This document shows, piece by piece, positions 4,963-25,311 of a stretch of DNA of 64,000 nt. The number at the start of each line of letters is the position of its first letter. Position 1 is the stretch's first letter. The stretch covers positions 64,001 to 128,000 of the forward strand of contig JABCTZ010000017.1 in the NCBI GenBank assembly GCA_018238155.1. Reading direction: 5' to 3'. Under the pieces are notes generated by a model. It did no database searches. It saw only the letters and a program-made list of their open reading frames with translations, and was not told the DNA's origin. Source of the DNA: Candidatus Heimdallarchaeota archaeon (lineage in GTDB: Archaea; Asgardarchaeota; Heimdallarchaeia; JABLTI01). Made by a program: the position numbers and the translations under genes.

Positions 4963-5321
4963 ATGAGTGATGATAATAAATAGAAAAGTGACTATCTGTC
5001 GTTACAATTCTATTCAATAGGTAGAAAGTAGAGTTTCAACCGTTATGTAATAATGCGATTGATAGATTCGAGTAGCAAGAAAAAGTTCGGTTGACAAGCT
5101 GTAAAAAGATGGATGAATTTCCCTCAACAAAGAAATACGAGTGGACCGATGTGTTGGCAGTTCATGTGAAAGATTTGAGCCAAGCACAAAAGATTAACTT
5201 TAAACCAACAGACAATTTTGCTAATCTAGCAAAGAAAATTGAGGAAGAATTGTCAATCATAGCAGAGAATATTGACAAGAAAGACTCTACAGAGGAAAAA
5301 ACGAAGAAAGAAAGTACCTGA
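4963..5321 (+). pseudogene. Probable decayed gene; the 5091-5321 ORF is its intact 3' part
   Basis: The frame of the 76-aa ORF extends upstream through in-frame TAGs at 5022 and 5073. An upstream ATG at 4963 is in another frame and is also interrupted. Confidence 0.35.
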
Positions 5322-6288
5322 GAGAATACCGTTCCTTTTTTTCTGTTTACCAATAAAACTTTTATTAGTAAATACAAATAGTATTGCTTATAGGAGAGAC
5401 TTTAAGATTATTGATAATAAATTTCTCAACCTTTCATTTTTTTTAATCTTGATAATATTTTCACAGAATATCTGCTATTCGTATGGTTTTAGTGTTAGTA
5501 GAGAATTAGAACCTCAATCATTATTAAGGGGAAAACTAGTTCTTTCAGATTTTTCGCAATTCGATTTGGTAATAAATAATTCTCATCTTGGGACTTCTAA
5601 ATCAAGCTCGAAGATTGATTTTTTCCGTGTTGATGACGAAATCGGTCCAACCAATTATGGCTTAAAGTATATCTACACTTTCCCTCAAAATTTCGATTGT
5701 TTTGACTTTGATTTTTCAATTCAATTTGACATCCAATTTTTTGACATTGATCATATCGGATATATCATAATTCACTTCGTAAGTTATTATGATCAATATA
5801 ATATCGGATATCTCAATACTGGATCAATTGCTCGTACTATGATCTTTGGTATGCCAAATAATGCTGATTCAGGTTATGACGTTAGTTTATGGTCTGCATC
5901 TGGAGAAACGGAGAACAAGTGTAGATATTATTCCTCGAATACTCCTGATTCTGTACTCTGTTGGGGAAATCGCACAAGTACCGCTACAGAGCTTTGCATG
6001 AAGAATCTTGATTTTGGCAGCACTATCATTTCCGGATTTTTCATGAAACAAAGCGATAATAATCTAAAGTATATCTCACTAGAATATATGACAAATGTAA
6101 ATAATGATAATTTCAATGCAACTGCTTCAAATATTAGTGTTGTTTTTTACTCTGACGAAACGACAACTATTATTGATACAAATCTAAATACTTCATATAT
6201 TCTGGGTTTGACACTACCAGTAATTGTAGGAACAACACTTTTTCTTGGTGTATTTATAATTGTTTTCCGAAAGAGGAGAGAATATTAA
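5272..6288 (+). CDS. Hypothetical membrane-anchored surface protein (true start probably near 5400)
   Basis: Internal signal-like hydrophobic stretch, Thr/Asn-rich linker, C-terminal TM plus RKRR tail. Confidence 0.55.
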   Translation: MTRKTLQRKKRRKKVPERIPFLFFCLPIKLLLVNTNSIAYRRDFKIIDNKFLNLSFFLILIIFSQNICYSYGFSVSRELEPQSLLRGKLVLSDFSQFDLVINNSHLGTSKSSSKIDFFRVDDEIGPTNYGLKYIYTFPQNFDCFDFDFSIQFDIQFFDIDHIGYIIIHFVSYYDQYNIGYLNTGSIARTMIFGMPNNADSGYDVSLWSASGETENKCRYYSSNTPDSVLCWGNRTSTATELCMKNLDFGSTIISGFFMKQSDNNLKYISLEYMTNVNNDNFNATASNISVVFYSDETTTIIDTNLNTSYILGLTLPVIVGTTLFLGVFIIVFRKRREY

Positions 6289-6520
6289 ATTTTCTTGCTC
6301 TTTCAATAGGTTTACAATTTTTGTATTCCTTTTAGACTCTGATATTTCAAGAAGCGGTTTTTTTCCTCAAGGGCTACTCTCTTAGAGAGTTTTTTACTAA
6401 CAAATAAACTTTTTTTTACTAATTTACATTATATTGTTCCAAAGACTTTTCTATTTTTTTGTCTTATATGCCTTGAAACATTATTTCGTGAATGGAAACA
6501 ATGACTAGAAGTGAATTTAT

Positions 6521-6691
6521 ATGATTTCAAAGATAATTTTAATCAAAGCTAAATTAGAGATGAAAGATTATAAACGAAAGCTAGATGATCCAATGTTTCA
6601 TCAGAAGAAAATTCTTTTTCAAATATTGAATCGCAACAAAAATTGTGAATATGGTTCTGATTATAAATTTGCATCTATTAATATGTCCTAA
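6521..6691 (+). pseudogene. Truncated GH3 (auxin-responsive acyl-amido synthetase) family N-terminal fragment
   Basis: 56-codon ORF MISKIILIKAKLEMKDYKRKLDDPMFHQKKILFQILNRNKNCEYGSDYKFASINMS* matches the GH3 N-terminal pattern P..Q..L..IL..N..TEYG..Y.F..I. Confidence 0.55.
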
Positions 6692-6909
6692 AGAGAATTA
6701 TCATGCTTATAACATATGCAATGAATTCCACAACAATCAAAACTATTGAGTAACCACTTATCATAATGCTATTACAAGCATTGTCATTATTTTTAATCTA
6801 ACAAAGGAGGATAGTTTTATTCGACAAAATTTTTGATGTGGATTTTGAAGTTAGAAAGTCAATGTTTATTTATAGGTGTAAAGAGATAATCTAGTAGAAG
6901 AATCTAAAG

Positions 6910-7389
6910 GTGAAACAAATGAAAATTTGGATAGTGCATGATTCACATTTTGGTAATGGTGAAAAATTAGCTAAAACATTGGGCACAGCTTTAAAAAAGA
7001 AAAGAGAAGTTTTTATTGATAACATCAAAAATGTTTCTCCAGAAAAAGTAGTTAGTGATTCTCCAGATGCAATTATTATTGGAACTGCAGCACGAATATT
7101 CATGATTAGTAGCGCATCCAAGAAATGGTTGCGAAAGCTCAAAAATGAACTGAAAAAAGAAAACAAAACAATAAAATATGGTGCAACTTTTCTAACTCAT
7201 GTTCTAGATAAAAAAGTAGCTAAGACCTGGGGGAAAAGGTTTCATAAGAAACTTAATGGTTTAGCTATAACTAATATCTATTCTGAATGGATATCAGGTC
7301 AAGTAAAAGACAAAGAAGGTCCATTTATAGATGGTGAACAAGAACGATTTGAGAAAATCGGTAAAGATCTTAATGACTGGATGAAATAA
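6910..7389 (+). CDS. Flavodoxin-like domain protein
   Basis: IVHDSHFGNGEKLAKTL FMN-loop-like start; DAIIIGT; GPF near the C-terminus. Confidence 0.7.
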   Translation: MKQMKIWIVHDSHFGNGEKLAKTLGTALKKKREVFIDNIKNVSPEKVVSDSPDAIIIGTAARIFMISSASKKWLRKLKNELKKENKTIKYGATFLTHVLDKKVAKTWGKRFHKKLNGLAITNIYSEWISGQVKDKEGPFIDGEQERFEKIGKDLNDWMK

Positions 7390-7508
7390 GCTAGTTAGTA
7401 CTTTATCATGTCTCTTTTTTTCTTGCAACAGGTTCTTTGTAAATTTTCATTTTAAACAATTCATTTAAGATTATTTGACTTACATATTGTAGAGAGGATT
7501 ATGTTTCA

Positions 7509-8474
7509 ATGATAAATGACAAACAGAGAACCATTATCAAATTTGTCAATGTTTCCAAGAATTTCAGGGAAGTAAAAGCTCTAACTGATGTTTCCTTTGA
7601 AATCAATAGAGGAGATATTTTTGGTTATATTGGTCATAATGGTGCAGGTAAAACAACGACACTGAAGATTTTAGTTGGTCTTATTCGTGATTATTCCGGG
7701 GAAGTATTGATTGTTGGTGAATCACTTCAGAACCATTCTGATTTTAGTAATCTTATTGGATATCTCCCACAAGATGTCGGTTTTCAAGAATGGCGAACAG
7801 TTGACCATGCATTGATAACATTTGGTTTATTATCTGGTATGGGGAAATCTGAATTAACGCAACGCATTCCGGAAATTTTGGAAATGGTTGGTTTAACAGA
7901 AGCTCGTCATCGTAAAATTAAATATCTATCTGGTGGTATGCAGCAGAAATTGAAACTTGCTCAAGCACTCCTCCATGATCCACAAGTGCTAATTCTTGAT
8001 GAACCCTTGAGTGGTTTGGATCCCACTAGTAGGTATCAAATGAAGAATATAATCCGAAAATTGGCTGTAAATAAAAAAACAATTCTCTTTTCGTCTCACA
8101 TTCTGGGCGATGTAGCAGATATTGCTACAACAATTGGTATAATTAAAGAGGGAGTTATCCAGCGCATAGGTACCCCTCTTGAACTCCAAAATGAACTTAC
8201 AGAAGGTGACGCTATTGAGCTTGTTGGTCATAATCTTACAACATCCATTGCAAAAATTCAAGCCCTTCCAAATGTCGAACGAGTAGAGCTAGTTTCAAAC
8301 AATCAAGATCGATTGGTGGTGACCTATTCTACTGGTACAAACGTCCAAGAAGTAACAATTCAATTAATGGCTTTTTTGAGTGAAAATAAAATAGCAATAC
8401 AAAATTTCAATTATCTTAAACCATCTCTAGAACAAGTATATTTGAAATATATGGAAGGAGGTACTTCACATTGA
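7509..8474 (+). CDS. ABC-2 type exporter ATP-binding protein
   Basis: GHNGAGKTT, LSGGMQQK, ILDEP, SSH. Confidence 0.92.
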   Translation: MINDKQRTIIKFVNVSKNFREVKALTDVSFEINRGDIFGYIGHNGAGKTTTLKILVGLIRDYSGEVLIVGESLQNHSDFSNLIGYLPQDVGFQEWRTVDHALITFGLLSGMGKSELTQRIPEILEMVGLTEARHRKIKYLSGGMQQKLKLAQALLHDPQVLILDEPLSGLDPTSRYQMKNIIRKLAVNKKTILFSSHILGDVADIATTIGIIKEGVIQRIGTPLELQNELTEGDAIELVGHNLTTSIAKIQALPNVERVELVSNNQDRLVVTYSTGTNVQEVTIQLMAFLSENKIAIQNFNYLKPSLEQVYLKYMEGGTSH

Positions 8475-18103: not shown

Positions 18104-18724
18104 TCATTTCGCCATTTCTTGTATTATTTTCTCTATTTCTTCAATACTATAATCATCCATTTTTTTGACTTTAGTGGAAATTTCAGTTATAATCTTCAAA
18201 CTGGAATTTAGGTTTATCATTCTTTGTTGTAATTGTTCTTTTCTTTTTTCATAATGTTTCTCTAAAGCTTGAAGGAATTTCTTTGCCTCTTCTTTTGTTT
18301 TGAATTTCTTCAATTGCTCTATCAAACTCGGTCTCCTGCTATGCCGAATACGTATTAATGGTCTTCGTGTTGGAGGAATAATATCACTTAGGAACGCAAT
18401 TTGATTGGTCCAATCATCTCTTAATTCTCGTAATTTTTCCTTCCCTTGTTCAGTTATTTTGTATAGTTTTTGCGCACGACCCTTGACAATTGCCTCTTCA
18501 GAAGTAATATATCCTTTTTCTTCCATTCCCTTCAATGTTCTATAGACATTCGTTTGTTTTACTTTGTAGTTCTTTTGAAGATCATATCCGGTAATCCCTT
18601 CAGTCTCTTCTGAAATAGTCCATAAGAACACTAATTGACTCATTTCTTTTACCATGCCAGGACCAAAAGGCATAGGTGGTCGAAAATGGTGTTGTTCGTA
18701 AGAACTGTGCCTTTGCTTATTCAT
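18104..18724 (-). CDS. PadR family transcriptional regulator with coiled-coil C-terminus
   Basis: ITGYDL...VYRTLKGMEEKGYI...KLYKITEQGKEKL. Confidence 0.85.
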   Translation of the reverse strand: MNKQRHSSYEQHHFRPPMPFGPGMVKEMSQLVFLWTISEETEGITGYDLQKNYKVKQTNVYRTLKGMEEKGYITSEEAIVKGRAQKLYKITEQGKEKLRELRDDWTNQIAFLSDIIPPTRRPLIRIRHSRRPSLIEQLKKFKTKEEAKKFLQALEKHYEKRKEQLQQRMINLNSSLKIITEISTKVKKMDDYSIEEIEKIIQEMAK

Positions 18725-18763
18725 TATACTTCACCTATACTTTCACAGCTATGCTTTAAAAAA

Positions 18764-18786
18764 AATATCGTCAAATTGGTGATATT
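18764..18786. promoter_or_regulatory. Imperfect palindrome upstream of padR (putative operator)
   Basis: AATATCGTCAA-A-TTGGTGATATT; a close copy lies at 19352-19374. Confidence 0.55.
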
Positions 18787-18892
18787 ACCGTTCCTTTTTA
18801 GAAATAGTAAAGAACTCATGCTTGGGCTTACACGAGTTCTTTAGTTTTGACGTGATGTTTTCTTTTGGAGATACTTAACTACTGAAGCGTTA

Positions 18893-19315
18893 TTACTCAT
18901 CCATGTCGATTATTTTCTTATCGTATTCTCGGTGAGTTTTTCTGAGGATTTTTCTCATTTCCCCGGGTGAGTATTCTTCTAGTTTAGTTAGATCCTTTAT
19001 ACTTTGATCAAAAAGTTCATTTAGAATTTCTAAATGTTCCATTCTTGTGTTCAATCGTCTTTTTTGTTTGACCAACATTTTCTTCCGATATTCCAAGTGT
19101 TCTATTGCCTCATCTTTGCTTCCAAGTTCTTCTAGTAGGTCCATTCTCCTACCATGGAACCTTCTGTGTCCAGCCATTGGATGTCTTCCCATTATTGGGT
19201 GTGTTCTCATTCTTGGCGCTTTTCTCATCATATGATGCATTACATGTCTTGGCATATCTTCTGTGCAATCTTGACTGTTTCTTTCTGTGTTTCTTTCTTT
19301 ATGTCTTCTCAACAT
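18893..19315 (-). CDS. His/Met/Arg-rich protein paralogous to the PadR C-terminal coiled-coil domain
   Basis: KDEAIEHL...RMEHL...KLEEYSPGEMRKI aligns with PadR KEEAKKFL...RMINL...KMDDYSIEEIEKI; GGTGA RBS upstream. Confidence 0.6.
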   Translation of the reverse strand: MLRRHKERNTERNSQDCTEDMPRHVMHHMMRKAPRMRTHPIMGRHPMAGHRRFHGRRMDLLEELGSKDEAIEHLEYRKKMLVKQKRRLNTRMEHLEILNELFDQSIKDLTKLEEYSPGEMRKILRKTHREYDKKIIDMDE

Positions 19316-19351
19316 TTTTCACCATGCTCCTTATAGACACGGTAGTATATA

Positions 19352-19374
19352 AATATATCCAATTTGGTGATATT
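19352..19374. promoter_or_regulatory. Second copy of the putative PadR operator
   Basis: AATATATCCAA-T-TTGGTGATATT; its right arm is identical to the 18764-18786 copy. Confidence 0.55.
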
Positions 19375-19469
19375 GCTACAATAAGCATATTGCCAAATTA
19401 TTCACTACTGACCAAAACAGCTGGTGGAACTAGCTTCAATAAAAAAAGAAAAATTAAAATAAACCTTTA

Positions 19470-19898
19470 TTATTGACTTTTATAAAGCTCATCCACTTTT
19501 TTTGCTACTTCTTGAGCAATTATTTCAGCTAATTTCATACCATCATCTCCAATATCCTGTGGAGTGTTAGGAATAAGTTCTGGATGTTGTTTCATAATTT
19601 CCTTAACGTAGATTGTTGCTGTTGCAGGAGCGCTATATCGTTCAACAGCTACTTTTCCACATTCTTCATCACATCCTTCTATTGTGATGGTTTTGTGTTT
19701 CTTAGCAAATTCTCTCTCGGATCCACCACCCTTATGATTAATATCACCCGCCATAAATAATGGTTGACAAATAATTGTGGTAGTGAATGGTCGCAATTTT
19801 TCTACTACAATTCTTGTTGCTACTCGAGTTAATGTTCCTTCTACTAATTTTTCACCACTACAAGCGATTATACCTATTTTTGGTTTTACTGAAATCAT
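19470..19898 (-). CDS. DGC-domain (putative zinc-binding) protein
   Basis: IIACSG...G..TR, IICQPL, ITIEGCDEECG. Confidence 0.8.
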   Translation of the reverse strand: MISVKPKIGIIACSGEKLVEGTLTRVATRIVVEKLRPFTTTIICQPLFMAGDINHKGGGSEREFAKKHKTITIEGCDEECGKVAVERYSAPATATIYVKEIMKQHPELIPNTPQDIGDDGMKLAEIIAQEVAKKVDELYKSQ

Positions 19899-19909
19899 CT
19901 TTTCACCTT

Positions 19910-20314
19910 CTATTCTATATATAAATCATCAACTTTTTCTGCAATATTCTCTGCTAGTTTTCTTGAGAGTACTTTTGCATTTTCACCTAAAATCAAAATA
20001 TCTTTTTCAGGTTTCAAGTCTCGATGTTTTTTGACTATGTCTGTAGACATAAAAACCGCATCAGGTTCTCTAACTGCTACTCGAACATCGGTATATGCGC
20101 ATTTTGCAGTACAACCATCGATGGTGATAATCTTATTTGCTTTCAGAGCATCAATGACTTCCTTCTTTCCTTTAACAATAAGTGGTAGACATTCTATAGC
20201 AGCTTTTTCTGGAGCTAACTCATTAACAACAATATAGGCTGCTTCTCTACACATACCACCAAATGCTTTTCCTATTCCACTACAAGGGATGATGTATACT
20301 TTTTCTTCTGACAT
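19910..20314 (-). CDS. DGC-domain (putative zinc-binding) protein
   Basis: IIPCSGIGK, ECLP, ITIDGCTAKCA. Confidence 0.82.
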   Translation of the reverse strand: MSEEKVYIIPCSGIGKAFGGMCREAAYIVVNELAPEKAAIECLPLIVKGKKEVIDALKANKIITIDGCTAKCAYTDVRVAVREPDAVFMSTDIVKKHRDLKPEKDILILGENAKVLSRKLAENIAEKVDDLYIE

Positions 20315-20327
20315 TTTACTACCTACC

Positions 20328-21191
20328 TTAATTTTCTTCAACAATTTTACGTTTCATATATTCGAAGTATGTTGGACCATCCATTAGGAGTTCCTTATCT
20401 TCTTCAAGAGCTGCTAACTCAATTTCAGCAACCCATCCTTGCTCGTAAGCATCGCCATTCAAAAATTCTGGACTGTTTTCTAGTTCATTATTAACATCGA
20501 TAATATTTCCACTAACTGGTGATATTAATTGGAGTAATGCCTTAACTGATTCAAAATCTGCAACTTCATCAAATTGCTCGATTTTTGTTTCAATCGTTGG
20601 CAAATCAACAAAAATAACATCTCCCGCTTTGTTTTGAAAATAGTCTGTAATACCAACTAATGCTGTTTTTCCTTCTATTTTTGCCCAACAATCATTCTCG
20701 TTAAAATAGTATCCTTCTTTTGGCACACGGAAATGATATTTATCTACGGTAGTTTCTAAATATTCTACACCTACGAATTTTCTCTCTTCCTTTTTCTCAG
20801 TAATTGTGCTTAATTCAGTAATGAATTTTGTAATAATTTCTGCTGCAATTTTCTCTACAAGTTTCTCTCCATCGGTATTGAGTACTAGGTTTTTACCAGG
20901 GCGCAGTTGAAATTTTTTGGTCATATCCGGGATAAAAACTCGTTTGCTGATTTTCTGTCCTTTCGTCTCAGCTAATTTTGCTGCACAACGTGTTGAGCAC
21001 CCATCTATTACAATGATTTTAGCATTCTTTAGAATCTCGTCATATTTTTTTTCATTAGTATTATATAGAACCGGGCAGATTAAATCAATAGAAGAATCCA
21101 TCTCGATTACTTTGATAGATACTTCTCGAGTAATAACTCCAAGTGCTTTATCTAGTCCATTACAAGGTAGTAAACAGATTTTTTTAGCCAT
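20328..21191 (-). CDS. DGC domain fused to a glycine-cleavage H (lipoyl carrier) domain
   Basis: N-terminal PCNG...LICP...VIDGCSTRCA; C-terminal VGITDY..GDVIFVDLP..FESVKA..SPVSG..N.DAYEQGW with the lipoyl Lys retained. Confidence 0.85.
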   Translation of the reverse strand: MAKKICLLPCNGLDKALGVITREVSIKVIEMDSSIDLICPVLYNTNEKKYDEILKNAKIIVIDGCSTRCAAKLAETKGQKISKRVFIPDMTKKFQLRPGKNLVLNTDGEKLVEKIAAEIITKFITELSTITEKKEERKFVGVEYLETTVDKYHFRVPKEGYYFNENDCWAKIEGKTALVGITDYFQNKAGDVIFVDLPTIETKIEQFDEVADFESVKALLQLISPVSGNIIDVNNELENSPEFLNGDAYEQGWVAEIELAALEEDKELLMDGPTYFEYMKRKIVEEN

Positions 21192-21194
21192 TTT

Positions 21195-21500
21195 TTAACC
21201 CTCACCTTTTTTTCTAATTTCTTTAATCAGCGTAACAATTTCCTTTTTGTTGGGGAAGATCAATGCATCTGGTTCACACATTTTCACGCAAGCTCTACAA
21301 AAAACAACGCAATTATATACATTCTTTACAATAAGTTTCTTCTCTTCTTCGTTCCTTTTTTCAAAGACTTTATGGGGGCAGAACTTATCACAATCCATAC
21401 AATAGTTACATTTTTCATAATCTATTGTTGGCCACCAAGGAATCTCTTTTCTTGGTACTCCCATGAAAGTAGCAGTAGTTGCATCATATTTTTTAGCCAT
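21195..21500 (-). CDS. 2x[4Fe-4S] ferredoxin
   Basis: CNYCMDCDKFCP and CVVFCRACVKMCEPDAL. Confidence 0.88.
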   Translation of the reverse strand: MAKKYDATTATFMGVPRKEIPWWPTIDYEKCNYCMDCDKFCPHKVFEKRNEEEKKLIVKNVYNCVVFCRACVKMCEPDALIFPNKKEIVTLIKEIRKKGEG

Positions 21501-21501
21501 T

Positions 21502-21876
21502 TTATTCATCCTTCTCATGATTTTCTAAGGTTTGCTCAACTAGATTAAATGCTTGTTCTGTAGACAAATCTCTAATATCTAGCGGAATAAGATCTTTCTT
21601 TACATCTAATCCTACCTTTTGAAATGCATCTCGAAAGAGCTTGTATTGCATTGTTGGTGCACAACCTGCTACCATGTATTTTCGTCCTTCCTGTAAGAAA
21701 TCATCAAAAAATCTATCACCATCTTCTTCACAAAGCTGCGGATGAATAAATCCATATTCAACTGGAAGCTCGATACGTACTCTGTTGACAAAGTCCCACA
21801 TATCCATTTTTTCAAATCCAGGGCATTTGCCTGTACAAACACACATTATGAATCCAATCTCTTTTTTATTTGCCAT
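21502..21876 (-). CDS. Stand-alone heterodisulfide reductase subunit A N-terminal-like protein
   Basis: IGFIMCVCTGKC...PQLC..DG...VAGCAP...FRDA...LDIRD resembles the HdrA N-terminal domain. Confidence 0.7.
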   Translation of the reverse strand: MANKKEIGFIMCVCTGKCPGFEKMDMWDFVNRVRIELPVEYGFIHPQLCEEDGDRFFDDFLQEGRKYMVAGCAPTMQYKLFRDAFQKVGLDVKKDLIPLDIRDLSTEQAFNLVEQTLENHEKDE

Positions 21877-21916
21877 GCGTATCACTTGGTTCTAGGTAAT
21901 TAAAACACGAGGGTTC

Positions 21917-21940
21917 ATAACAATATTTAAATATTGTTAT
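21917..21940. promoter_or_regulatory. Perfect 24-bp palindrome, putative ArsR operator
   Basis: ATAACAATATTT-AAATATTGTTAT between the divergent arsR and the DGC operon. Confidence 0.75.
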
Positions 21941-21956
21941 ACACTTATTTCGTTTT

Positions 21957-22277
21957 ATGAATGAAAAAAATGAACTACTTCAGTTTAGAGCGAAGATATT
22001 CAAAGCGTTTGCGGACCCTCTAAGACTACATATATTGCAATTCATAGGTACTGAAGAAAAATGCGTTTGTGAAATAATCCCCGAATTAGATGTAGTACAA
22101 CCATTAGTATCTCGACATCTCGGAATCCTTAAGAGAAGTGGTCTCATCTTTGATCGAAAAGATGGAAATAAGCGTTTTTATTCCCTAACAGATATTAGAA
22201 TTCTCAAGATAATAAAAGATGTCACTCCAGAAATGTGTGAAAATTTTTCTTCGTTAATTATTCAGTTATTAACTTGA
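21957..22277 (+). CDS. ArsR/SmtB family metalloregulator
   Basis: FKAFADPLRLHIL...KCVCEI...QPLVSRHLGILKRSGLI; alpha3 CVC site. Confidence 0.9.
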   Translation: MNEKNELLQFRAKIFKAFADPLRLHILQFIGTEEKCVCEIIPELDVVQPLVSRHLGILKRSGLIFDRKDGNKRFYSLTDIRILKIIKDVTPEMCENFSSLIIQLLT

Positions 22278-22297: not shown

Positions 22298-22855
22298 TTA
22301 TGCTTCTTGCTCTAAAAGATGGAATAAATACGTGAATGCATCTACTAATCCTTTACCAGATTTTGCAGATGTTTTGTAAACAGCCCAATTGATAACAGAG
22401 CTGAGTTGCAATAGACCAAATTTTTGAATAAACTCTGCTCGAGGCATGCACTCGGATAAATCTGCCTTATTTAACAGAACTAGAACTGGTATTCCAATAT
22501 TAATCTGTGTTTCAATTACTTTGTGGAAGACTTCTCGAGATTCTTCGAAATTGCTTTGATCACTACCATCCACGATATATACTACAGCATCCGATTTTTC
22601 ATTTATCTGCGTCCAAAAATTACGGAAACCTGTTTGCCCACCAAGGTCAAATATTTTTAAATGTAAATTTGGAAAATCAATATTATTTATATTAACACCC
22701 ATTGTAGGTATTGTTGTTTTTGAGTCACCGTACATTAGATAATTAATAGTTGAAGTCTTTCCTGCATTGGCTAACCCACAAACTGTCATGTTTGCTTCTT
22801 TTGTTTTTTTACCAAATAATCTTCTAAATATTGACACAGTCACCTTTTCTCCCAA
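22298..22855 (-). CDS. Arf/Arl-family small GTPase
   Basis: GLANAGKTS, PTMG, DLGGQ, NKAD, SAK; N-terminal amphipathic SIFRRLFGKK. Confidence 0.88.
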   Translation of the reverse strand: MGEKVTVSIFRRLFGKKTKEANMTVCGLANAGKTSTINYLMYGDSKTTIPTMGVNINNIDFPNLHLKIFDLGGQTGFRNFWTQINEKSDAVVYIVDGSDQSNFEESREVFHKVIETQINIGIPVLVLLNKADLSECMPRAEFIQKFGLLQLSSVINWAVYKTSAKSGKGLVDAFTYLFHLLEQEA

Positions 22856-23211: not shown

Positions 23212-23781
23212 TTGGTTGATGACAAATTAACTGATATTCGATTTCATGGTCGTGGCGGCCAAGGTGTAGTGACCGCTTCTCGTATTGCCGCAGAAGCAGC
23301 CCTTGCCGAAGATAAATATGTCCACGCCTTTCCAGCTTTTGGTCCAGAAAGAGCCGGTGCACCTATAGAAGGGTTTACTCGCATTTCCTCTGAAGAGTTC
23401 ACTTTAAAAACAGAGATTCACTATCCCGATATAATTGTGATTTTAGATCCAACACTAATCGGTACAGTTAATCTTGGTAAAGGACTCAAAGAAGGGGGAA
23501 TTGTCATAGCAAACTTTGCCGGTTCGATGGACGAGTTAAAGAAAAAAATCGGTATAAAAACCAAAGCCGAATACCATAAAGTAGACGCTACTAAAATTGC
23601 TAACGAAGAATTAGGTAGACCGATTACCAATACTGTTATGCTTGGTGCAATGATCAAAATAACAGATATTGTTGATTTAGATCATGTCTGCAATATAACT
23701 GCTGCGCGATTCCCAGGAGTTGTTGGTGAGAAAAACGTTAAAGCAATTAAAAGAGCATACAAGGAGACAGAAAGCGAATGA
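23212..23781 (+). CDS. porC: Pyruvate/2-ketoisovalerate:ferredoxin oxidoreductase gamma subunit
   Basis: IRFHGRGGQGVVTA, FGPERAGAP. Confidence 0.9.
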   Translation: MVDDKLTDIRFHGRGGQGVVTASRIAAEAALAEDKYVHAFPAFGPERAGAPIEGFTRISSEEFTLKTEIHYPDIIVILDPTLIGTVNLGKGLKEGGIVIANFAGSMDELKKKIGIKTKAEYHKVDATKIANEELGRPITNTVMLGAMIKITDIVDLDHVCNITAARFPGVVGEKNVKAIKRAYKETESE

Positions 23782-24104
23782 GTAAAAATACACTCTCCGA
23801 AAAAGAAATGAAAGAATGGATAGAGCAAAAATGGGGTTATGAAAAATTACCCATGGGCGGATCTGTTCCTTTTGGTGGTTCCTCCATTTACTTCAAAACA
23901 GGTGATTGGAGTCCGTTCAAAGCAGTTGTTGATCGCGAAAAATGTACCAAATGTACTCGATGTTTCTTCCTCTGTCCTGATTCAGCAATAACCATGGATG
24001 ATGGTGGAATTCCGGTAATGGATTTCGATTATTGTAAAGGCTGTGGTATCTGTGCTGAAGAGTGTCCGTCTGACGCTATCGCAATGAAGGACTTGTCTAA
24101 ATAG
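23778..24104 (+). CDS. porD: Pyruvate:ferredoxin oxidoreductase delta subunit (ferredoxin)
   Basis: KTGDW, CTKCTRCFFLCPD, YCKGCGICAEECP. Confidence 0.9.
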   Translation: MSKNTLSEKEMKEWIEQKWGYEKLPMGGSVPFGGSSIYFKTGDWSPFKAVVDREKCTKCTRCFFLCPDSAITMDDGGIPVMDFDYCKGCGICAEECPSDAIAMKDLSK

Positions 24105-24114
24105 GTGATTACTC

Positions 24115-25311
24115 ATGACTAAAGCATCAATTACCCCTGGTAAAAGAGTAGGTATGACTGGCGACGAAGCTGTTGCTAATTCTATGGCAGTTATTAACCC
24201 TGATGTGGTTGCCGCTTATCCTATTACCCCTCAAACAATTATTGTCGAACATTTCAGTGACTTTGTCAATGATGGTGAAGTAGACACCGAATACATTACT
24301 GTAGAATCTGAACACAGTGCCATGAGCGCTTGTGTTGGTGCAAGTGCAACCGGTGCACGAGTCTTTACAGCCTCTGCCAGTCAAGGTATCGCTTTAATGT
24401 ATGAAATTCTCTTCATTGCTTCTGCCTCAAGATTACCTATCGTTATGGCTGTTGCAAACAGAGCATTAAGTGGTCCAATTAACATTCACGGTGAATTAAC
24501 AGATCAAACCGTCTGTCGAGATACTGGTTGGATTTCCATGTTCTCTGAATCTGCTCAAGAAGCATATGATGCAGGATTCATTGCTTTCAAAATTGGTGAG
24601 CATCCTGATGTATCTTTACCAGTTATGTACGGTCTTGATGGGTTTATTATAACCCATGCTCTCGAGGGTGTTTATCCTCTTGACCGAGATTTCGTTAAAA
24701 AATATTTACCAGAACGTGAGATGGTTCATCCAACAGTTCCTGGCAACCCAGTTTCATCTGGTCTACTTGCTCTCCAAGATTATTATATGGAAGTAAAGTT
24801 CCAGCAAGAAATTGCTATGGATGCTGCCCGTAAAGTAATTCCAAAAGCCTTTGAGGAATTTGGAGATTTAACTGGTCGCTATTATAAGAGTGTTGAAGAG
24901 TACCAAATGGAGGACGCTGAAGTCGCTTTTGTAACCATGGGTGCGTTAGCTGGTACAGCAAAATATGTTGTTGATAAGCTTCGCAAAGATGGCGAGAAAG
25001 TTGGTATGTTGAAAGTGAAAACCTTCAGACCATTCCCAGAAGAAGATTTGGCTAAAGCTTTGAAAGGTATTGAAACAATCGGTGTTATTGATCGTGATCT
25101 TACTTTTGGAGCACCAGGACCAGCTCTATATACTGACATTAAAACAACACTTTATGACCACAAAGAACGTCCACAAGTGCTTGGTTATATTGCAGGCCTT
25201 GGTGGAAGAGATGTTGCACAAGATGAATTCAACTACATCTACAAGCAGATGCTTAAGAATAAAGGCGCTGAAAAATCCGTTCCAGTAGAATGGGTCGGTC
25301 TTAGAAAGTAG
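24115..25311 (+). CDS. porA: Pyruvate:ferredoxin oxidoreductase alpha subunit
   Basis: AAYPITPQT, ESEHSAMS, NRALSGP. Confidence 0.92.
   Translation: MTKASITPGKRVGMTGDEAVANSMAVINPDVVAAYPITPQTIIVEHFSDFVNDGEVDTEYITVESEHSAMSACVGASATGARVFTASASQGIALMYEILFIASASRLPIVMAVANRALSGPINIHGELTDQTVCRDTGWISMFSESAQEAYDAGFIAFKIGEHPDVSLPVMYGLDGFIITHALEGVYPLDRDFVKKYLPEREMVHPTVPGNPVSSGLLALQDYYMEVKFQQEIAMDAARKVIPKAFEEFGDLTGRYYKSVEEYQMEDAEVAFVTMGALAGTAKYVVDKLRKDGEKVGMLKVKTFRPFPEEDLAKALKGIETIGVIDRDLTFGAPGPALYTDIKTTLYDHKERPQVLGYIAGLGGRDVAQDEFNYIYKQMLKNKGAEKSVPVEWVGLRK

Follow-up and report, generated by a model that had tools for sequence, protein, structure and literature searches.

A conserved ArsR-linked five-gene cassette in a Heimdallarchaeote: a candidate lipoyl dithiol relay for arsenic handling

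Arsenite is toxic largely through chelation of dihydrolipoyl groups. Several described systems use thiols in ways that bear on the locus reported here. Ars operons with thiol accessories combine ArsR, Acr3 or ArsB and ArsC with thioredoxin or glutaredoxin, or carry ArsD and ArsA. In lipoyl thiol relays, such as Lpd-DlaT-AhpD-AhpC of Mycobacterium tuberculosis and the H-protein/L-protein/OsmC set of Trichomonas, dihydrolipoyl serves as a thioredoxin-like reductant that is recharged by dihydrolipoyl dehydrogenase (Lpd). The sHdr-LbpA system of sulfur oxidation uses a GcvH-like lipoyl carrier outside glycine cleavage. Here we describe a cassette of five genes, A to E, divergent from an arsR gene in Candidatus Heimdallarchaeota archaeon (assembly GCA_018238155.1, contig JABCTZ010000017.1, positions 64,001 to 128,000; this whole stretch of 64,000 nucleotides is called the window below). 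The cassette encodes an HdrA-N-like protein (A), a ferredoxin (B), a fusion of a DGC domain with a GcvH-type H-protein domain (C) and two further DGC proteins (D and E). A function related to arsenic or another metalloid is quite likely, and we lean towards the more specific reading that the locus is an arsenite-derepressed operon building a private low-potential dithiol relay for arsenic handling.

The cassette resembles the ars operons in its CxC-type ArsR, in its putative palindromic operator and in being embedded in ars islands in most relatives, and its small Cys-rich products possibly bind As(III) or feed a reductase. Unlike those operons, it has no gene among A to E that belongs to a named Ars family, and its reductant, in place of thioredoxin or glutathione, would be a lipoyl group bound to a protein and supplied by Fe-S proteins. 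No pump gene or arsC is adjacent to it in the window, whereas both lie beside it in many relatives. With sHdr-LbpA it shares the GcvH-like lipoyl carrier and an Fe-S protein related to Hdr; relatives also have a dedicated lipoate ligase. However, of HdrA it has just the N-terminal domain, which stands as a free protein and lacks the FAD domain. Neither HdrB (CCG) nor HdrC was found by Pfam near L001-L003, L050, L064 and L070 (L numbers designate individual loci), where TusA, DsrE, rhodanese, SQR and PDO were not searched for, and the only Pyr_redox match among the annotated neighbours was the downstream dihydrolipoyl dehydrogenase of L070. The carriers, moreover, live anaerobically as fermenters and acetogens, and their cassettes have an arsenic context instead of one of sulfur oxidation. 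The likeness to the lipoyl thiol relays lies in the proposed use of dihydrolipoyl as a reductant and in the true Lpd found at many bacterial cassette loci. The differences are that no peroxidase partner was seen by the cassette, that the acceptors would be DGC domains, and that a ferredoxin/[4Fe-4S] input is always present while Lpd is optional.

Eighty loci were retrieved and analysed. No locus of sufficient length departed from the order A-B-C-D-E. A to E constitute one strictly conserved unit, in keeping with the operon named in the initial annotation of the window, and the synteny extends from Asgard archaea to bacteria. The Asgard carriers are labelled Heimdall-, Loki/Promethearchaeota-, Jord-, Frey- and Thor-. 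Bacterial carriers, spread over Bacillota, Actinomycetota, Chloroflexota and Melainabacteria, include six Acetobacterium species, Clostridium ljungdahlii, C. ragsdalei, Eubacterium callanderi, E. limosum, Moorella, Formimonas, Desulfotomaculaceae, Negativicutes and Dehalococcoidales. No published description of the cassette was found in the literature, and a paper on ArrAB-independent arsenate respiration in Fusibacter makes no mention of its genes.

The genes around the cassette were then counted in loci of at least 10 kb (19 Asgard, 45 bacterial), an ars structural gene being scored when Acr3, ArsA, ArsC or ArsP was encoded within 8 kb. Such genes were present in 42 of the 64 loci. At least one of the four was found in 33 of the 45 bacterial loci, and an ArsR in 39 of the 45; among the 19 Asgard loci, Acr3 was found in nine and an ArsR-family gene in 16. 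Around canonical gcvH genes, any ars gene was found in 1 of 68 control loci and ArsR in 0 of 68, a control that is imperfect in coming mostly from aerobic Proteobacteria and from genomes other than those of the carriers, although the contrast is still large. The initial annotation had proposed a metalloid- or sulfane-inducible system; the neighbourhoods give the arsenic link independent support, and the sulfane alternative comes out weaker.

Other genes recurred as well. The bacterial loci encoded Lpd in 18 of 45 cases, an Fe-S protein of family PF04060 in 18, a cysteine desulfurase in 14, LplA in 12 and a cation diffusion facilitator (CDF) transporter in nine. LplA was adjacent in 16 long loci overall, and Lpd was absent next to the Asgard copies. 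In C. ljungdahlii, arsR-arsC-arsD-arsA-acr3 and a fragment of an ArsP-type permease abut the cassette. In A. woodii it is flanked by a low-molecular-weight phosphatase (LMWP)-type ArsC, an ArsA homologue (identified by BLAST), a CDF transporter, a cysteine desulfurase of the TIGR01977 family and the PF04060 protein. A true dihydrolipoyl dehydrogenase also flanks it, with a TIGR01350 score of 511 bits (cut-off 409).

The ArsR of the window matched HTH_5 in Pfam (PF01022, 1e-11) and the NCBIfam model HTH_metalloreg (NF033788) with 78.8 bits against a cut-off of 55. The CVC-type site that had been read in its helix alpha3 was confirmed as C36-V-C38. Both cysteines were invariant in 25 aligned ArsRs, including that of the C. 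ljungdahlii ars operon, and a CxC motif was present in alpha3 of all 32 ArsRs that divergently adjoin gene A. In the R773 ArsR, alpha3 carries Cys32 and Cys34 with a third cysteine, Cys37 (ELCVCDLC), and the first two are enough for induction. The third alpha3 cysteine is missing from the window's protein, which reads EKCVCEIIPE, and its C94 was confined, in the alignment of 25, to the window and locus L015. Alpha3N Cd/Pb sensors require an N-terminal Cys pair, which this ArsR lacks, as it lacks the BigR/SqrR-type cysteine pair; its match to the BigR model was weak (42.5 bits against a cut-off of 155). Identity with TsoR was rejected (61.8 bits against a cut-off of 115), and no TsoR paper was found in the literature.

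Within the 71-bp divergent spacer between arsR and gene A, ATAACAATATTTAAATATTGTTAT forms a perfect palindrome of 12 + 12 bp with no spacer, just as first read, 16 nt upstream of the arsR ATG. It occurred in none of 100 shuffled sequences and is unique in the 4.08-Mb assembly, even at four mismatches; its half-sites likewise occur nowhere else. In the nearest relatives (L015, L002 and L001/L036), the interval from arsR to gene A contains near-identical palindromes. The central sequence of the window's palindrome, ATATTTAAATAT, can be read in either direction as an archaeal TATA-like box, and its distance of about 28 nt from the arsR ATG would fit a leaderless transcript. An operator common to the cassette and the genome's acr3 locus was considered and rejected, since neither palindrome nor half-sites were found elsewhere.

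Protein C matched both GCV_H (1.4e-32) and DGC (4.9e-16) in Pfam, with the DGC domain at residues 1-132 and the H-protein domain at residues ~150-287. In its AF2 model (predicted local distance difference test, pLDDT, 92.4), residues 154-286 superpose on the pea H-protein 1dxm_A with Z 22.6 and a root-mean-square deviation of 1.0 Å over 131 residues. The H-domain scored 118.1 bits with PRK01202 (cut-off 117) and 107.1 bits with the equivalog model TIGR00527 (cut-off 115.85). Like canonical GcvH, it has the lipoyl-lysine hairpin E-S-x-K: the lipoyl lysine, K217, was present in 51 of 51 cassette fusion proteins, in which the hairpin E214-S-x-K217 is kept and E214 is invariant. Unlike canonical GcvH, it has a DGC domain as fusion partner, lacks linkage to gcvP or gcvT, and differs at the cavity site. 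There protein C has E165-N-D-C168-W169, with Cys at position 168 in 50 of 51 fusion proteins, and canonical GcvH has xHEW in 74 of 78 sequences, this genome's own GcvH among them. At this motif of the E. coli H-protein, the residues that keep the loaded arm inside a protective cavity are Glu-12, His-13 and Glu-14 (PMC7733448). The replacement of HEW by ENDCW would therefore place a thiol where the tucked-in lipoyl arm would lie. Judged from the sequence, the lipoyl-lysine site of the H-domain is intact and a cysteine substitutes for the arm-holding Glu. Invariant K217, the frequency of a dedicated LplA and the true Lpd encoded at 18 of the 45 bacterial loci make a real, redox-cycled lipoyl arm probable; to this extent the lipoyl arm proposed in the initial annotation finds support. 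A natural fusion of C with D was also found (P0116, 444 aa), in which the order of domains is DGC-GcvH-DGC and the last domain is D-like, with 40.6% identity to D.

The three DGC (PF08859) domains of the cassette scored 59.1, 50.3 and 39.0 bits against a gathering cut-off of 27, with E-values of 2.7e-13 for D and 8.8e-10 for E, in agreement with the first reading of a DGC-lipoyl fusion followed by two DGC proteins. Profile comparison of D with E (hhalign, 99.8%) indicates that they are paralogues. Each domain carries four conserved cysteines, the DGC motif included: C11, C42, C68 and C72 were invariant in 44 orthologues of D, and C13, C44, C76 and C80 in 43 orthologues of E. In protein C, where they are C10, C39, C65 and C69, three are invariant and C39 was present in 48 of 51. 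In the AF2 model, residues 1-132 of protein C form a flavodoxin-like alpha/beta domain. The predicted secondary structure places C10 after strand 1, C39 in a loop past the short strand 2, C65 after strand 3 and C69 at the start of the next helix; these four positions correspond to the usual cofactor edge of the flavodoxin-like fold. The best fold match was the uncharacterised 3pu6_A (Z 10.1), little better than generic flavodoxin-like folds with Z about 8. No solved relative of the domain was found by sequence, and no description of its function was found in the literature.

Three further ideas about the DGC domain were discarded. A relationship to LMWP-type ArsC, suggested by the Cys-Gly-rich loop after strand 1, was rejected as homology (hhalign 0.3%). 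One to protein A or MvhD was unsupported (hhalign 0.6-2%, with MvhD outside the top 50 structure matches of the DGC domain). Selenocysteine at Cys10, suspected from shortened open reading frames (ORFs) in L020, L026 and L039, proved to be a normal Cys codon behind an unusual start. Additional copies were seen at several loci: E. callanderi strain FD has two full cassettes (L057, L085), L046 has two additional D/E pairs upstream, and in the Jord/Frey-type loci L003, L016 and L017 two or three more DGC genes form a divergent set. Duplication of the DGC module is thus a recurrent event.

Protein A had no Pfam match. With phmmer it aligned weakly with residues 7-93 of the HdrA 7bkb_A, with four cysteines in register. 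An AF2 model built from 52 orthologues (pLDDT 85.4, predicted TM-score 0.80) was compared with the Protein Data Bank (PDB) by Foldseek, and the seven best matches were all HdrA N-terminal domains (probability 1.00, TMq 0.49-0.62), with MvhD next. The profile of the family gave 134 matches among 1.84 billion cluster representatives, nearly all of them stand-alone proteins of 100-135 aa. Two longer matches (505 and 551 aa) aligned at the N-terminus and then ran on into Pyr_redox_2 and Fer4 domains, which marks them as HdrA-like proteins. The stand-alone HdrA-N-like domain claimed at the outset is thus recovered both by structure and by profile, and sequence and model together indicate that protein A is a free HdrA-N module. 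Five cysteines are invariant (C15, C17, C21, C52 and C75); C15, C17, C52 and C75 align with HdrA cysteines, and C21 is specific to the family, giving CxCxxxC. Protein A probably binds a [4Fe-4S] cluster. It resembles the HdrA N-domain and MvhD (PDB 5odc, 7bkb, 8rvu) in fold and in the four aligned cysteines, and differs from them in standing alone, in its fifth invariant cysteine and in the very narrow extent of its family. Its conservation is unusually high: the 51 other copies, archaeal and bacterial, are 58-96% identical to that of the window.

Protein B matched Fer4 and the Fer4 dicluster family Fer4_10 in Pfam, as expected for the 2x[4Fe-4S] ferredoxin initially annotated, and its eight cysteines, for two [4Fe-4S] clusters, were kept in 38 orthologues. 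Its best NCBIfam resemblance was to HgcB-type ferredoxins, under their cut-offs.

How these parts might work together can be put as follows. Without As(III), ArsR bound at the palindrome would cover the symmetric TATA-like box and keep the promoters on both sides silent; once As(III) was bound to C36/C38, ArsR would leave the operator. Reduced ferredoxin B would then pass electrons to the [4Fe-4S] protein A and on to the lipoyl disulfide of protein C. In many bacteria, NADH-dependent dihydrolipoyl dehydrogenase would reduce the lipoyl group in addition to, or in place of, the Fe-S route. The dihydrolipoyl arm, C168 and the four-Cys DGC domains (the N-terminus of C, D and E) would bind As(III), or alternatively the relay would give reducing equivalents for the reduction of As(V) or of organoarsenicals. 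Acr3 would export the product; its gene lies on another contig of this genome. The constant core of two Fe-S carriers, a lipoyl arm and three four-Cys domains, with LplA and Lpd as optional additions, suggests deliberate synthesis of the lipoyl group and its cycling between the disulfide and dithiol states, and an arsenic role for the dithiol and Cys sites is the most economical because the constant neighbours are arsenic genes. We give redox cycling of the lipoyl arm by the Fe-S proteins an even chance.

As(III) favours a three-sulfur site, and the two lipoyl sulfurs with C168 would supply one. Direct As(III) binding by the lipoyl group plus Cys168 is doubtful. The most far-reaching version of the scheme, which we consider unlikely, is a first lipoyl-based metalloid carrier or reductase. 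Its arm would fold into the cavity to make an As(III) S3 site from two lipoyl sulfurs and Cys168, giving a protected 'arsenic-loaded H-protein' that would parallel the aminomethyl-loaded form; ferredoxin B and the five-Cys protein A would act as a new, NAD(P)H-free ferredoxin:lipoyl reductase, and the three DGC domains would hand arsenic to efflux. If an arsenic relay of this kind is real, a classic target of arsenic has been turned into a tool of defence or processing. A role of lipoate would be added to those in 2-oxoacid and glycine enzymes, in sHdr sulfur oxidation and in peroxide relays, and the DGC family and the free HdrA-N module would receive their first functions. Such a relay could account for arsenic coping in anaerobes without glutathione and without the O2-dependent ArsH and ArsI. 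Genetically tractable acetogens that carry the cassette (A. woodii, C. ljungdahlii, E. limosum/callanderi) open the idea to direct testing.

Several observations besides the imperfect control weigh against an arsenic relay. In this genome the cassette is not adjacent to acr3 or arsM, both of which are on contig C10, and the confinement of the palindrome to a single site leaves a regulon shared with acr3 unsupported. Some loci already hold ArsC and ArsD, so the cassette is no simple replacement for them. Sb, Bi, Cd, Pb or Zn may likewise be the signal for a CxC ArsR, and nine bacterial loci have a CDF transporter. The four-Cys DGC sites might hold Zn or an Fe-S cluster without any contact with arsenic. 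The cysteine desulfurase and the PF04060 protein, in about a third of the bacterial loci, may indicate sulfur chemistry.

Four other explanations were weighed, and all are rated below the arsenic relay. In a sulfur or persulfide relay like sHdr-LbpA, the lipoyl arm would carry sulfane sulfur delivered by a desulfurase, the DGC proteins would be persulfide carriers and ArsR would sense persulfide or sulfite. Hdr-like complexes are reported to be partnered by lipoate-binding proteins in sulfur oxidation (Cao et al. 2018, PMC6067878), and the HdrA-N-like character of protein A, the TIGR01977 desulfurase and PF04060 protein in 14-18 of the 45 bacterial loci and the weak BigR match of ArsR would all suit such a relay. 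It is made improbable by the alpha3 CVC pair of ArsR and a BigR score far under the cut-off, by the lack of the HdrA FAD domain in protein A and of HdrB and HdrC matches at the loci named above, by recurring neighbours that are Acr3, ArsA, ArsD, ArsC and ArsP, and by carriers that are strict anaerobes, including fermenters and acetogens, with no sulfur oxidisers among them. Nor did the annotated neighbours of the retrieved loci include a peroxiredoxin, OsmC/Ohr or AhpD, and the regulator is a metalloid-type ArsR rather than PerR, OxyR or OhrR. These observations, with neighbours that are arsenic-specific transport and reduction genes, leave little room for a general thiol- or peroxide-stress relay that is merely co-regulated with arsenic stress, even though the CxxxC pair in every DGC domain and the Lpd accompanying many bacterial cassettes are what would be expected if the dihydrolipoyl H-protein were thioredoxin-like and the DGC proteins disulfide reductases acting on damaged proteins.

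A module for buffering or delivering Cd, Zn or Pb, with Zn/Cd(Cys)4 sites in the DGC proteins and a CadC/SmtB-like metal sensor as ArsR, has a slighter chance. It draws on the four conserved cysteines of each DGC domain and the database name 'putative zinc-binding protein', on the CDF cation-efflux genes in nine of 45 bacterial loci, and on CxC alpha3 sites known in Cd/Pb sensors. However, ars genes are far commoner neighbours than CDF genes, the N-terminal Cys pair of the alpha3N sensors is absent, and the lipoyl arm, Lpd, ferredoxin and HdrA-N module would be left unexplained. A role as an accessory of glycine cleavage, glycine synthase or C1 metabolism, in which the H-protein would be specialised for organisms with acetogenesis or the Wood-Ljungdahl pathway, is very improbable. 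The near-canonical GcvH score and fold of the H-domain fit it, and many carriers are acetogens or Asgard archaea. On the other hand, the genome has separate canonical gcvH-gcvPA-gcvPB and gcvT genes, neither gcvP nor gcvT was found among the annotated neighbours of the cassette, the residues that hold the aminomethyl arm in the cavity are replaced, and both the regulator and the neighbours are of the arsenic type.

In the protein collection, 767 relatives of protein C were found; both domains were kept in the best 120 of the 767, which were examined, and the named ones among these bore Asgard or Asgard-like labels. A scan of one genome per species gave 287 relatives. In the tree of protein C, the archaeal copies formed one clade against the bacterial ones with 98% support in the Shimodaira-Hasegawa-like approximate likelihood ratio test (SH-aLRT), and the window copy was sister to that of a Heimdallarchaeota metagenome-assembled genome at 93% identity. 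Contigs labelled Nanopelagicaceae, Bathyarchaeia and Deferrimicrobium (L020, L036 and L038) fell inside the Asgard clade, probably through mis-binning of Asgard contigs and not through transfer.

The coordinates of the cassette and its control region are collected in Table 1. All six ORFs were found where the initial annotation had placed them, the five close-set minus-strand genes among them, and their product types agree with it. Genes A and B overlap by 17 nt, B and C are separated by 3 nt, and D and E by 11 nt; the 17-nt overlap of C and D becomes a 13-nt gap if D starts at the ATG at 20314. The T-rich tract after gene E is likely to be an archaeal terminator that closes the five-gene unit.

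Table 1. Features of the cassette locus, in window coordinates
Feature	Position	Strand	Description
gene A	21502..21885	-	stand-alone HdrA-N-terminal/MvhD-like protein, 127 aa
gene B	21195..21518	-	2x[4Fe-4S] ferredoxin, 107 aa, N-terminal extension conserved
gene C	20328..21191	-	DGC::GcvH fusion, 287 aa
gene D	19910..20344	-	DGC protein, 144 aa; likelier start ATG 20314
gene E	19470..19898	-	DGC protein, 142 aa, paralogue of D
arsR	21957..22277	+	ArsR/SmtB-family repressor, 106 aa, divergent from A-E
palindrome, putative ArsR operator	21917..21940	.	perfect 24 bp
T-rich tract	19438..19463	-	directly 3' of the gene E stop codon (sequence reading)

The window holds no gene for Acr3, ArsA, LMWP-type ArsC, Lpd or LplA. 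The initial annotation was correct that gcvP/T, acr3 and arsM are missing from it, yet all are present elsewhere in the genome. On contig C10 (L095, G000:C10:35000-47000), at 5097-7634, a gene for Acr3 (393 aa) is divergent from two others. One encodes an ArsM-like methyltransferase, whose PRK11873 score of 242 bits falls slightly short of the cut-off of 263, and the other an ArsR of 148 aa that carries a CNC motif. Close to this acr3 locus is a Cas12f1/TnpB-like fragment (L095 2292-2624). The canonical gcvH-gcvPA-gcvPB genes are on contig C15 and gcvT is on C7. A third, orphan GcvH-like gene (146 aa) was seen in L008 (G000:C19:76864-80190) at 1459-1899, between a TiaS-like gene and genes for fumarate hydratase subunits. 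Two LplA genes were found elsewhere in the genome.

In L001, L002 and L036, the arsR operon continues with genes for a DUF5714 protein, an LplA-type ligase and a 104-aa protein. The DUF5714 protein may be an additional Cys-rich member of the system in some Asgard archaea. It was seen at L002:4189-4869 and also in L001, L003, L016 and L036, and it scored 125 bits (cut-off 600) with the model 'metal-binding double selenoprotein MbdU', to whose N-terminal part it is similar; a resemblance to the C-GCAxxG-C-C family was seen as well. DUF5714 was not found in the assembly of the window's genome, which is 90.7% complete. There the position of these three genes in the relatives is occupied by a gene for an Arf-family small GTPase (22298-22855; PF00025, 1.6e-40), convergent with arsR, and the arsR operon therefore appears to be truncated or replaced.

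Directly beyond the putative terminator of the cassette, at 18104-19374, a gene for a PadR-family regulator (206 aa) lies downstream of one for a 140-aa His/Met/Arg-rich protein without a Pfam family; this pair was not conserved with the cassette in other loci. On the other side, at 23212-25311, the translations of three ORFs resemble the gamma, delta and alpha subunits of pyruvate/2-oxoacid:ferredoxin oxidoreductase, which would be a local supply of reduced ferredoxin.

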